Source: a virus
Virus record (IMG/VR): IMGVR_UViG_3300031788_001256
Reading direction: 5' to 3' (one strand)
DNA length: 21,155 nt
Below, piece by piece: positions 12,711 through 14,641 of the stretch (the first letter of the stretch is position 1; each line of letters begins with the position of its first letter). The translations under genes and the position numbers were made by a program. Below the pieces are notes generated by a model, which saw only the letters and a program-made list of their open reading frames with translations, searched no databases and was not told where the DNA came from.

Positions 12711-12800
12711 GGAAGTGTGGGTGAATGGTTAAACCAGCGGTTTGCTAAGCCGCCGAAGCCTGAAAGGGCTATCCGAGTTCGAGCCTCGGCACTTCCGCCA
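12711..12800 (+). tRNA. tRNA-Ser (anticodon GCU), class II, CCA encoded
   Basis: Acceptor GGAAGTG/CACTTCC, discriminator G, CCA. D-stem GGT/ACC. Anticodon stem GCGGT/GCCGC with loop ttGCTaa. Long variable arm. T-arm CCGAG-TTCGAGC-CTCGG. Confidence 0.8.
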
Positions 12801-12832
12801 TAACATCAAAACAAACTTTCTGTGTTCTTAGC

Positions 12833-13282
12833 ATGGACACTAAAATAGTTTGTAGGGAAAAACGGCATCGTTGGGCTAAAAGGCGTAGGCAAGATCCTAA
12901 ATTTTTACCTAGCATTATTTGGCGAGATTCTCGTAGCTCAGATAAAAAATTGCTTCGGGAAAATGATCTTGACAAAGACTTTATTAAGGATAAAATTAGC
13001 AATGGATGTTTTTACTGCGGAGAGACAAAAATAAGGATGACCTTGGATAGAATAGATAATAGCTTAGGTCATTTAAAGACGAATGTCAATCCAGCATGTA
13101 TGCGATGCAACTATCTACGCAGGGACATGCCATACGATGCCTGGTTGTTTTTAGTTGAAGGTATTCGTAAAGCCACAGAGCAGGGAGCTTTTAACGGATG
13201 GCTAGGCGGTAACACTAGTAAATATGCTGGTGGGGAAGATTTAATGGACTTCATCGAAGTCGGTGAAGGTCCAGAAGAGTAA
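12833..13282 (+). CDS. HNH homing-type endonuclease
   Basis: CFYCGETKIRMTLDRIDNSLGHLKTNVNPACMRCNYLR is an HNH motif (Cys pairs, D-R-I-D-N, N...CN). Inserted between tRNA genes. Confidence 0.75.
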   Translation: MDTKIVCREKRHRWAKRRRQDPKFLPSIIWRDSRSSDKKLLRENDLDKDFIKDKISNGCFYCGETKIRMTLDRIDNSLGHLKTNVNPACMRCNYLRRDMPYDAWLFLVEGIRKATEQGAFNGWLGGNTSKYAGGEDLMDFIEVGEGPEE

Positions 13283-13381
13283 AAATTCGCAGCGGTGTTG
13301 CGTACAGTTACTTCGATACCCACTGGGGGAAACCCGGCAGTGGAGTTGTACCAACTGTATGTTTTATGTTCCCTGCGATTT

Positions 13382-13470
13382 GATGACATGGGGGAGATGG
13401 ATTAACCCAGTAGCTTGGAAAGCTACCATACCGCAAGGTATCGATCGTTCGAATCGGTCTGTCATCGCCA
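13382..13470 (+). tRNA. tRNA-Ser (anticodon GGA), class II, CCA encoded
   Basis: Acceptor GATGACA/TGTCATC, G, CCA. D-stem GGG/CCC with 12-nt loop. Anticodon stem GTAGC/GCTAC with loop ttGGAaa. Variable-arm hairpin. T-arm GATCG-TTCGAAT-CGGTC. Confidence 0.75.
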
Positions 13471-13476
13471 AGTTTA

Positions 13477-13562
13477 GAGAGTAACCAGTGGGCATGGTAG
13501 GTCGCCTCGAAAGCGACTGCTTCTAGAAATAGGGCACACCGGTTCGAGTCCGGTACTCTCTG
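13477..13562 (+). tRNA. tRNA-Ser (anticodon CGA), class II (3' end ...G-CC-t, CCA not fully encoded)
   Basis: Acceptor AGAGAGT/ACTCTCT. Anticodon stem GTCGC/GCGAC with loop ctCGAaa. T-arm ACCGG-TTCGAGT-CCGGT. D-arm pairing is less clean. Confidence 0.65.
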
Positions 13563-13569
13563 CCTTTAC

Positions 13570-13658
13570 CGAGAGATGGGCGAGATGGATTATGCCGCCA
13601 GTCTTGAAAACTGGTATACCGTAAGGTATCAAGGGTTCGAATCCCTTTCTCTCGGCCA
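13570..13658 (+). tRNA. tRNA-Ser (anticodon UGA), class II, CCA encoded
   Basis: Acceptor CGAGAGA/TCTCTCG, G, CCA. D-stem GGC/GCC with 12-nt loop. Anticodon stem CCAGT/ACTGG with loop ctTGAaa. Variable-arm hairpin. T-arm AAGGG-TTCGAAT-CCCTT. Confidence 0.75.
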
Positions 13659-13687
13659 ACTTTATGGTATTATCGTAAGGAGTTACG

Positions 13688-14008
13688 ATGAAGAGAAAAA
13701 ATAAACCACTGTTGTCCATTGAGAACGCACGAGAATTTAACGCCAAAATAGAGTGGGAAGGAAGTTTGGATTATGTTTTGCAGAACTGGGATTTTAAAGA
13801 ATTCAAAGATAAAAAATTCAATAGTTTGCGAAAAGCGTACATTAAGGCCCACCAGGATATGATGGATTATTGCTATCTGGATAGAGTTCTAGAAGATACC
13901 ACCGAACCATCAGATCTCGATGAATCTGACCGCTGCCCTTCTTGTGGAGATGCGCTGGAATTAAACGGTACATGTTATACATGTACGGGTGAGCAAAATG
14001 AGAATTAA
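13688..14008 (+). CDS. hypothetical protein with C-terminal zinc ribbon (CPSCG...CYTC)
   Basis: RBS AAGGAG. TGGTATTAT extended -10-like element at 13665-13673. Confidence 0.55.
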   Translation: MKRKNKPLLSIENAREFNAKIEWEGSLDYVLQNWDFKEFKDKKFNSLRKAYIKAHQDMMDYCYLDRVLEDTTEPSDLDESDRCPSCGDALELNGTCYTCTGEQNEN

Positions 14009-14264
14009 GCTCATCGTTAGAAAAAATTTGCACATGAGTGAAAATAAGCAATCCGCTCAATGTGTACATGCAGCTCTAGGGCTTTACAAAAAAAATCCGC
14101 AGGATCATTGGTCATGCGTGGTGCTGGATGCTAGCGATAAAAAATTCGAGGAAGCAAAAGAAGCGCATCCAGAGGGATATGTAGTGACCGATGCGGGCTA
14201 CACGGAAATTCCAGCGGGCAGTGAAACTGTTTTGGCTTTCTATGAGGATGACCCCAGAGAATAA
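13998..14264 (+). CDS. PTH2-family (archaeal/eukaryotic-type) peptidyl-tRNA hydrolase-like protein; alternative GTG start at 13989
   Basis: LHMSENKQSAQCVHAALG and TDAGYTEIPAGSETVLAF match the conserved AQCAHA and DAG-T-I-pGt-TVL blocks of PTH2 proteins (from memory). Short for the family, about 88 aa versus about 115. Confidence 0.5.
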   Translation: MRIKLIVRKNLHMSENKQSAQCVHAALGLYKKNPQDHWSCVVLDASDKKFEEAKEAHPEGYVVTDAGYTEIPAGSETVLAFYEDDPRE

Positions 14265-14452
14265 TGCTGATTCATTGTGATCGATGTAAGCGAAAAGTTG
14301 AAGGCGATTTTCACGAAAGGTTTACCTGCGGATTTTACGATGTAAGCTTGGGTTGTTGGAGAAAATACGCCAGGAATTACGAGACCATTATTTGCGATGA
14401 ATGTATGCATGCAGACCCGCAGTATATACAAAATTATGGAGTTACAAGATAG
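14264..14452 (+). CDS. small zinc-binding protein (CDRC...CDEC)
   Basis: TAATG overlap with the upstream gene. Its stop abuts tRNA-Leu. Confidence 0.45.
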   Translation: MLIHCDRCKRKVEGDFHERFTCGFYDVSLGCWRKYARNYETIICDECMHADPQYIQNYGVTR

Positions 14453-14535
14453 GCCCGGATGGCGAAATTGGAAGACGCGCTCGGCTTAAGATCGAGTCCG
14501 AAAGGGTGGGGGTTCGAGTCCCCCTCTGGGTACCA
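14453..14535 (+). tRNA. tRNA-Leu (anticodon UAA), class II, CCA encoded
   Basis: Acceptor GCCCGGA/TCTGGGT (two G-U pairs), A, CCA. D-arm TGGCGAAATTGGAAGACGCG very close to E. coli tRNA-Leu. Anticodon stem CTCGG/TCGAG with loop ctTAAga. T-arm GGGGG-TTCGAGT-CCCCC. Confidence 0.75.
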
Positions 14536-14547
14536 AAATTTGGATGT

Positions 14548-14641
14548 GGTGGGCAGCACTGGTGTGCGGCTGAGCCTTATAAACTCGGGAAAGCTCCAGA
14601 TTAGAGCGACGGCGTGGGTTCAACTCCCCGGCCCACTACCA
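14548..14641 (+). tRNA. aberrant tRNA-like element (94 nt), possible pseudo- or unusual class-II tRNA; isotype unresolved
   Basis: Acceptor GGTGGGC/GCCCACT, A, CCA (tRNA-Tyr-like ends). TTCAACT T-loop with only a 3-bp clean T-stem. 4-bp D-stem with 4-nt loop. Best anticodon hairpin CTGAG-ccttataaa-CTCGG has a 9-nt loop. Long extra arm GCTC-cagatta-GAGC. Confidence 0.3.

Follow-up and report, generated by a model that had tools for sequence, protein, structure and literature searches.

Phages such as T4 (with SegB), T5, the cluster M mycobacteriophages and the jumbo phages carry clusters of tRNA genes packed among small open reading frames (ORFs) and homing endonuclease genes (PMC6409571; PMC8421152). 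Their genomes are large and of the virulent type, isoacceptor families are covered, and the proposed roles are codon supply and escape from host defences that target tRNAs (PMC6409571; PMC8421152; PMC11555353; PMC13096335); phage tRNAs counter tRNA-cleaving defences (PMC11555353; PMC13096335). We analysed a locus of this kind in a 21,155-nucleotide (nt) stretch of DNA, IMG/VR virus record IMGVR_UViG_3300031788_001256 (the window), in which positions 12,711 to 14,641 hold a block of six tRNA genes with long variable arms. The locus is like the phage clusters in all these respects. It differs from them in a strict layout by amino-acid family, in a promoter and leader repeated before its first two blocks, and in its non-canonical members: a long-arm tRNA with the anticodon UAU, which is our main subject, long-arm tRNAs for Asn and Gln, and a compact tRNA-Ser(CGA).

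Bacterial long tRNA arrays (Tran et al., 2016; Santamaria-Gomez et al., 2021) are horizontally mobile, dense sets of tRNA genes with homing endonucleases, as here, and the same UAU tRNA family occurs inside them, mainly in Acidobacteriota. PMC4758250 defines a tRNA array unit as at least 20 tRNA genes at a density of at least 2 per kb. The present cluster falls outside that definition, with 22 genes at ~1.4 per kb interrupted by protein genes; its single blocks are denser yet hold fewer than 20 genes, and its carrier looks viral. The literature that we examined on tRNA arrays and on clusters of tRNA genes in viruses does not mention such a UAU tRNA.

Among described groups, allo-tRNA(UAU) (Mukai et al., 2017, PMC5389517) comes closest; these are tRNA-Sec-like false positives with irregular cloverleaves, in which UAU is the most frequent anticodon. 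Like the UAU family, they come from soil and peat habitats and from Acidobacteria, and the window copy has, as they do, a long variable arm, a tetraloop on its D stem and an anticodon stem of more than 5 bp. In contrast, the UAU family has a 7/5 acceptor/T arrangement supported by covariation, where allo-tRNAs have 8/4 or 9/3, and A73, where allo-tRNAs have G73 or U73 (serine identity). This comparison is with the published description of allo-tRNAs, and the two sets may overlap. In E. coli, six allo-tRNA(UAU) variants with amber anticodons did not insert Ser; toxicity was seen with two (PMC5389517). If the sets do overlap, the absence of Ser insertion in that assay is what a non-Ser identity predicts.

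Two further systems use a UAU anticodon. Nematode nev-tRNA-Ile(UAU) also has a long variable arm (PMC3333845; PMC4300185). It is eukaryotic and Leu-charged in vitro (PMC4300185), no GAU-loop motif is reported for it, and it very probably arose independently, by convergence. In Mycoplasma mobile, tRNA-Ile2(UAU) reads AUA through an unmodified UAU anticodon, with no need of TilS (PMC3575796). That tRNA is class I, and the problem is solved by Arg865 of its isoleucyl-tRNA synthetase (IleRS) and by the ribosome, whereas in the UAU family the tRNA itself has a conserved extra arm.

A sixth long-arm tRNA gene and its family

The initial annotation described four tRNA-Ser genes and a tRNA-Leu. A sixth long-arm tRNA gene, not described there, lies inside the same interval and ends at its last base (Table 1). 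ARAGORN missed the gene at its default setting and called it tRNA-Ile(tat) at a threshold of 90% (-ps90). It begins 12 nt after tRNA-Leu, in line with functional-looking tRNAs. The acceptor stem has 7 bp (GGUGGGC/GCCCACU from 14548, first pair G1.U72) and is followed by a 1-base linker, a 4-bp D stem with a UGGU tetraloop, a 6-bp anticodon stem with the loop CUUAUAA (14576–14582), the variable-arm hairpin, a T arm with the loop UUCAACU, A73 and an encoded CCA. By blastn, the gene had no match among GenBank phages. A permissive Rfam search gave a weak tRNA-Sec match at 14546–14639, with 27.4 bits; tRNA-Sec identity was ruled out by the 47-bit gathering score of that model (RF01852) and by the anticodon, which is UAU instead of UCA.

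A scan of IMG/VR for the CUUAUAA loop with a T arm downstream at long-arm distance, the variable arm being left unconstrained, found at least 120 loci. Among the loci listed, at least 59 genes of 80–99 nt were called tRNA-Ile(tat) by ARAGORN, at least 56 of them unique, and most stood in multi-tRNA loci (median 4, maximum 38 tRNAs). The listed members have a long anticodon stem and a 7-nt variable-arm loop that is usually CAGAUUA. A73 is invariant in both family alignments (A1 and A2). CCA is encoded in about 60% of calls, and among the matches listed each of the 35 calls with CCA ends in ACCA. The D arm is ordinary in many members, and one subgroup shares the D stem and tetraloop of the window gene (two members, L024 and L114, have D arms identical to it); its consensus anticodon stem has 7 bp, and 20 of its 25 sequences begin with G1.U72.

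In the alignment of these 25 sequences, the cloverleaf accounts for 97.4% paired cells, compared with 36–48% when partners are slid. Both sides have changed in 23 of 28 pairs, values that none of 500 shuffles reached, and RNAalifold independently returned 27 of the 28 pairs. All 7 acceptor pairs (1–7/86–92) and all 5 T-stem pairs (69–73/81–85) show compensatory changes. Compensatory change in all helices indicates, at the level of sequence, selection on the tRNA fold. A covariance model (R1) built from 26 family members, with the window sequence left out, scored the window gene at 61.3 bits (E 8e-14, over 14548–14638), while ordinary tRNAs reach at most 30 bits on it. Family alignment and covariance model thus both uphold the 7/5 register. 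The registers 8/4, 9/3, 8/5 and 9/5, which we had drawn by hand, were dropped in favour of a 7/5 arrangement in which one U is bulged, with A73 and an encoded CCA; in our hand analysis of the window copy, 8/4 or 9/3 left unpaired bases between helices.

Outside IMG/VR, a stricter pattern that included the variable-arm motif gave 40 matches in 185,579 species genomes. About two-thirds were in Acidobacteriota (Pyrinomonadaceae, Blastocatellia, Terriglobia, Bryobacterales and Ca. Angelobacter), and the remainder include roseobacters, Nostoc and Acidithiobacillus. At most of these loci the UAU gene lies within a dense tRNA array, commonly close to tRNA-Ile(GAU) and tRNA(CAU). Among the matches (L134–L173), many metagenome-assembled genomes (MAGs) of Acidobacteriota have arrays of 10–38 tRNA genes within 8 kb that include a UAU member; some of these array-bearing contigs may be binned phage or mobile-element DNA. 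Two cultured Synechococcus phages also carry a member, S-SRM01 (MW015081.1, 32944–33031; L174 3001–3088) and S-SKS1 (HQ633071.1, 178515–178593). Both copies are intergenic, and the GenBank records annotate nothing there. The UAU tRNAs thus form what the alignments present as a structurally well-supported, widespread and mostly unannotated family.

A gene with irregular features could also lie outside translation, as a decaying pseudogene or as a regulatory or toxin-linked RNA, which is what Mukai et al. proposed for most allo-tRNA(UAU). Two T-stem positions of the window gene mispair unless a U is bulged, ARAGORN misses the gene by default, and the inactivity and toxicity of the allo-tRNA variants described above point the same way. 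On the other hand, all other helices are intact, CCA is encoded, the gene keeps its high score on the family model and its place among functional-looking tRNAs, and compensatory change is strong in every helix of the family; the assay of Mukai et al., moreover, detected Ser insertion alone. We therefore regard a role outside translation as unlikely.

The GAU loop and the charging of the UAU tRNA

The window gene fits the definition of the family, a YUUAUAN anticodon loop combined with a 7-nt variable-arm loop of the form NNGAUNN. When the variable arm was unconstrained, GAU was central in a 7-nt loop in 35 of 56 matches listed by strict parsing and in about 48 of 56 by inspection. The converse scan, which required just the variable-arm motif and the T arm, returned 111 unique sequences, of which 91 parsed automatically with YUUAUAN or YUUAUGN anticodon loops; nearly all the rest visibly contain UAU, and about two look like chance matches. 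In the family alignments, the loop keeps GA in every sequence and U in nearly every one, with variation at the loop positions on either side. The UAU anticodon thus appears, from these scans and alignments, to be strictly linked to a variable-arm hairpin that displays GAU.

This hairpin is sized like an anticodon arm, with a stem of 4–5 bp and the triplet central in a 7-nt loop. The 5-nt linker after it has the length of a class-I variable loop, and the covariance model aligns the anticodon arm of an ordinary tRNA onto it. GAU is the anticodon of the major bacterial tRNA-Ile, and AUA decoding in bacteria normally depends on a dedicated modification enzyme, TilS. A tRNA with a UAU anticodon is poorly charged by E. 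coli IleRS and, on E. coli ribosomes, cannot tell AUA from AUG (PMC3575796). Together, the match of the loop to the major anticodon and the poor charging of UAU suggest that the second loop could be an identity handle.

The amino acid itself is indicated indirectly: A73, the CU-NAU-AA loop and the position in arrays beside tRNA-Ile(GAU) would fit isoleucine. The initial annotation had proposed that long-arm scaffolds are natural substrates for recoding. We saw no sign of recoding by the Ser and Leu genes, but the remark does fit the sixth gene, a long-arm tRNA with an anticodon that is neither Ser nor Leu. This gene could be a missense tRNA, charged by leucyl- or seryl-tRNA synthetase through its long arm and A73 (a Leu-type discriminator) and inserting Leu or Ser at AUA. 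Precedents are the nematode tRNA in vitro and allo-tRNAs in E. coli, and two reports describe class-II scaffolds with non-cognate anticodons that are charged through identity elements and not through the anticodon (PMC5389517; PMC4300185). However, AUA makes up 20% of Ile codons in ordinary-looking genes of this genome, the family sits in arrays beside tRNA-Ile(GAU), a better fit to an Ile isoacceptor, and the conserved, strictly UAU-linked loop NNGAUNN suggests specific recognition. Missense decoding by this gene thus seems quite unlikely.

A more specific scheme would make the molecule a ‘two-loop’ isoleucine tRNA. In it, the ribosome would read UAU for AUA, while IleRS, or another identity enzyme, would read the GAU of a variable arm that mimics an anticodon arm. 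We put this forward as speculation and think it, on balance, doubtful.

The tRNA cluster, its serine genes and codon usage

ARAGORN, run at default on the whole window, called exactly the five Ser and Leu genes of the initial annotation, all on the + strand and with the same anticodons (Table 1). Its drawings and the Rfam alignments show a long variable arm in all five, and in the four Ser genes these and the sequence show a paired stem in that arm together with G73. Under standard wobble rules, the four Ser anticodons read all six Ser codons, as had been claimed. The general Rfam tRNA model (RF00005, gathering score 29 bits) supports four of the five genes with 45–54 bits (E 2e-9 to 6e-7). 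Ser(UGA) is a paralogue of Ser(GGA) with an identical variable arm. By megablast, the tRNA region of block 1 had no match among GenBank phages.

The fifth gene, Ser(CGA), is not reported by RF00005 and scores 26.7 bits on the tRNA-Sec model, below the cut-off; that identity was ruled out, the anticodon being CGA instead of UCA. Its ARAGORN cloverleaf has an acceptor/D linker of 1 nt, an anticodon stem of 6 bp and a paired variable arm. We rate the gene as atypical but probably intact because compact Ser(CGA) genes, with the anticodon at position 33–34, are common among other phage and array tRNA sets.

Table 1. Positions in the window of block 1, its tRNA and protein genes and its control elements
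Feature	Position	Strand	Evidence
Sigma-70-like promoter and ~115-nt leader before block 1	12475–12626	+	Promoter scan, 11/12 matches
Terminator-like G+C hairpin, then T run	12679–12708	+	Terminator scan; ends ~3 nt before first tRNA gene
tRNA-Ser(GCU), class II, G73, CCA encoded	12711–12800	+	ARAGORN; Rfam tRNA 54.4 bits
Endonuclease VII/HNH-type (homing-endonuclease-like) ORF, 149 amino acids, among Ser genes	12833–13282	+	PHROGs
tRNA-Ser(GGA), class II, G73, CCA encoded	13382–13470	+	ARAGORN; Rfam tRNA 45.4 bits
tRNA-Ser(CGA), atypical, G73, CC-T in place of CCA	13476–13564	+	ARAGORN; minimum-energy fold is the cloverleaf
tRNA-Ser(UGA), class II, G73, CCA encoded	13570–13658	+	ARAGORN; Rfam tRNA 52.6 bits
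ORF of 106 amino acids, C-terminal zinc-ribbon-like CxxC...CxxC	13688–14008	+	phrog_17752, 1.8e-5; weak Pfam Zn_ribbon_PADR1
PTH2-type peptidyl-tRNA hydrolase, 88 amino acids, within tRNA block	13998–14264	+	Pfam PF01981, 5.4e-12; gene call on source contigs
Cys-rich ORF, 62 amino acids, ends one base before tRNA-Leu	14264–14452	+	ORF list; no Pfam or PHROG match
tRNA-Leu(UAA), class II, A73, CCA encoded	14453–14535	+	ARAGORN; Rfam tRNA 50.3 bits
Long-arm tRNA, anticodon UAU (14578–14580)	14548–14641	+	Family model R1; ARAGORN -ps90 tRNA-Ile(tat)
Variable-arm hairpin of the UAU tRNA, 4-bp stem GCUC/GAGC, 7-nt loop CAGAUUA (14597–14603), GAU central	14593–14607	+	Sequence

The block had been taken for an island of class-II tRNAs only. 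We followed two source contigs (L012 and L013) 10 kb further downstream, calling tRNAs with ARAGORN and then Rfam, and found at least 15 further, mostly class-I, tRNA genes past the window end; the class-II appearance thus comes from the point at which the window was cut, combined with grouping by amino acid. The 15 downstream ARAGORN genes start ~2.5 kb past the window end, ~8 kb after the last tRNA within it. They are Trp, His, Arg (CCG, GCG, ACG and UCG), a long Asn(GUU), a long Gln(CUG), a normal Asn(GUU), one gene with a 6-nt anticodon loop, Lys(CUU), Phe, Arg(UCU) and two Lys(UUU). An Arg(CCU)-like gene with an aberrant D arm was found by Rfam alone (36.6 bits). There were no tRNA genes within 10 kb upstream of the ligase gene.

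In total, the cluster comprises ~22 tRNA genes in 15.6 kb (L013 2022–17610), ~1.4 per kb, and is ordered by amino-acid family: block 1 holds Ser (four genes), Leu(UAA) and the UAU tRNA, and later blocks hold Trp, His, Arg (five or six), Asn (two), Gln, Lys (three) and Phe. The Ser set, singled out before as unusual for a phage, shares this genome with complete Arg (CCG, GCG, ACG, UCG and UCU, plus the CCU-like gene) and Lys (CUU and UUU) sets. The Ser genes are one isoacceptor family inside a general tRNA cluster.

Blocks 1 and 2 have the same upstream organization. The block-1 promoter (TTGACA, 17 nt, TATTAT, at 12482–12510) is near-consensus, and the ~150-nt promoter/leader unit has a second copy, 95% identical, just upstream of block 2 (L013 12413–12563). 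A terminator-like hairpin comparable to that of block 1 lies immediately upstream of tRNA-Trp, the first tRNA of block 2. The unit has no Rfam match and only two copies in the ~52 kb read. It may act in tRNA expression as a regulatory leader or attenuator that both blocks share.

Some downstream tRNA genes are themselves irregular. An 87-nt tRNA(GUU) (L013 14112–14198) and an 89-nt tRNA(CUG) (L013 14307–14395), ~6.5 kb beyond the window, have paired long variable arms and adjoin the normal tRNA-Asn(GUU). Both retain Asn/Gln acceptor features (U1-A72 and G73, with G2-C71/G3-C70 in the Gln one), and they look like class-I isoacceptors into which an extra arm was inserted; a Ser-type missense role for them was dropped on these features, read from a hand parse only. 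Two other tRNA-like genes lie at L013 14696–14766 and 16810–16883. One has the 6-nt anticodon loop and a partly mismatched acceptor stem (‘tRNA-???’ in ARAGORN), and the other is the Arg(CCU)-like gene.

Codon usage was counted over 5,455 codons in 26 non-structural ORFs. Ser accounts for 5.5% and Leu for 8.7% of codons, and the six Ser codons each contribute 7–22%. The block had been suggested to compensate for late proteins rich in Ser or Leu. All six Ser codons are indeed used and covered by the tRNA set. However, the genes counted show no Ser or Leu bias, the outcome that the initial annotation itself had named as refuting, and no skew among Ser codons except a low UCG, which contradicts the idea for these genes; Arg and Lys sets, moreover, are complete too. 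We regard such compensation as highly improbable.

Codons ending in A or U are in appreciable use. At 44.5% GC (GC content at third codon positions 41%), AUA accounts for 20% of Ile, UUA for 16% of Leu, AGA for 21% of Arg and AAA for 60% of Lys codons, and the cluster carries a tRNA for each of them. The suggestion of recoding by the Ser and Leu tRNAs found no support, as every ORF is open under the standard code and we found no suppressor anticodon. Recoding of stop codons was rejected: under code 11 the ORFs stay long, and none of the 22 genes has a CUA, UUA or UCA anticodon.

The initial annotation had also raised depletion of host Ser and Leu tRNAs by an anticodon nuclease. In its targeted form, block 1 would replace long-arm tRNAs cleaved by a host nuclease, as T5 and T6 tRNA-Tyr do against PtuAB and Septu. 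Genes for RNA maintenance occur in the vicinity (PTH2, a PNKP-like fragment and an RlaP-type nucleotidyltransferase), and all six block-1 genes are long-armed. With the Ser family counted as one unit, the chance of long arms in the other two is ~0.04, a weak figure computed after the fact. In contrast, the Arg and Lys sets are equally complete and many class-I tRNAs are present, so that Ser and Leu are not singled out. Targeted replacement is therefore an improbable reason for block 1. The Ser/Leu finding is real yet ordinary, part of a large phage tRNA cluster, and requires no special explanation.

The carrier genome and the role of the cluster

Many metagenome contigs (156 index blocks), the longest of 152,942 bp, encode one protein of the island in identical form. 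The samples include ‘WOOD18’ sets and JGI peat-type samples, and the genome is abundant in peat and bog metagenomes. Twelve strain-variant contigs (L001–L006 and L008–L013) are 99.7–100% identical to the window and give no covariation, because the island is identical in most. On the source contigs, the called genes are closely packed and lie almost exclusively on the + strand, with many small ORFs that lack known function.

The window also encodes an NAD-dependent DNA ligase and an SprT-like protein. Several proteins strongly match PHROG families; the 149-amino-acid ORF among the Ser genes, for example, matches phrog_1035 (endonuclease VII, 9.8e-15) and phrog_2214 (HNH, 1.7e-5), with no Pfam match. 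A search for diverged relatives with PTH2 found one related contig only, from IMG/VR, and the SprT-like and MVP-like proteins, used as anchors, found none. The phage origin assumed before is likely, given the phage-family matches, the IMG/VR relative and the homing endonuclease genes among the tRNAs, and a large phage is the likely carrier.

The locus could instead belong to a bacterial mobile element or a chromosome with a long tRNA array (L-array). The same UAU family occurs in the tRNA arrays of bacterial genomes and MAGs, virion genes are lacking in the ~52 kb, and ABC-transporter, OmpA-domain and ferredoxin genes lie in the window. In contrast, the genes are dense and on one strand, with many small ORFs, several homing endonucleases, strong PHROG matches and a relative in IMG/VR, and near-identical contigs of up to 153 kb from many samples are free of ribosomal and housekeeping genes in the parts read. 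A bacterial locus is accordingly hard to credit.

Further genes around the tRNA blocks deserve mention. Host-like genes in the window (5294–10264) encode an OmpA-domain protein, an ABC permease-like protein, an ABC ATPase and a 2x[4Fe-4S] ferredoxin, and an amino-acid permease gene lies downstream (L013 18212–19525). Adjacent ORFs at 10485–10907 and 10911–11366 have similar N-termini (MCL...PI.GPI.AWKIV) and are apparent tandem paralogues, the second of 151 or 168 amino acids depending on the strain contig. A 77-amino-acid fragment resembles a polynucleotide kinase C-terminus (phrog_505, 17171–17404). A protein of ~820 amino acids (18107–20587) matches the shoulder and repeat domains of major vault protein (Pfam MVP_shoulder 3.6e-26) but no PHROG family; it is unusual for a phage-like genome. 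An RlaP-type nucleotidyltransferase gene (phrog_388) runs from ~20864 to the window end, where it is cut, between the tRNA blocks, the second of which holds another HNH gene.

Taken together, we consider it probable that the region is the first block of a general supply cluster of ~22 tRNAs, including a dedicated AUA decoder, in a large, AT-richer and most likely phage genome. What we observed directly are the tRNA genes and their structures, how far the cluster extends and how it is laid out, the membership of the family with its covariation, and codon usage. Expression, charging, host and selective reason we infer. The cluster would give an AT-richer virus its own decoding capacity, especially for the heavily used UUA, AUA, AGA and AAA, with the sixth gene serving as the decoder of AUA. 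Blocks 1 and 2 would each be headed by the same strong sigma-70-type promoter and leader. Viral translation would then rely less on a host tRNA pool, be that mismatched, shut off or attacked.

Several observations weigh against this account. In register, the T stem of the sixth gene breaks two pairs, and 5 bp are regained only with a bulged U in the covariance-model alignment; the gene could thus be impaired through its T stem. Its closest relative, L161, has a perfect T stem, and the window copy therefore carries a one-base insertion there. Ser(CGA) has no encoded CCA and may be impaired as well. No capsid or terminase gene occurs in the ~52 kb read. The PTH2-related IMG/VR contig has no tRNAs within 10 kb, which argues that the tRNA cluster is not a conserved trait of the lineage. 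The codon usage comes from 26 non-structural ORFs and covers the viral side only. Finally, Tran et al. (PMC4758250) report no codon-usage difference between organisms with and without tRNA arrays, which makes simple codon compensation less convincing as an explanation in general.

Of greater importance than the Ser/Leu set is the overlooked sixth gene, as it opens onto a large, well-conserved tRNA family. Standard annotation misses this family: ARAGORN at default overlooks the window copy, its Rfam match is below threshold, and two GenBank cyanophage records are blank at their copies. Since about two-thirds of the 40 genome matches are Acidobacteriota, which fits a host from peat, the distribution of the family suggests that the host of the peat virus could be an acidobacterium. 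In viral contigs and in Acidobacteriota arrays, the family couples an AUA-reading anticodon with a conserved second loop showing GAU. As a typical IleRS rejects UAU, and AUA normally needs TilS, the charging of these tRNAs is a clear and testable question, for which S-SRM01 and S-SKS1 with Synechococcus are cultured systems. If the two-loop scheme were true, such a tRNA would be an AUA decoder for phages and mobile arrays that works across hosts without TilS, lysidine or an adapted synthetase, and it would be the first natural tRNA to carry the ‘anticodon’ of the synthetase and that of the ribosome on separate arms.

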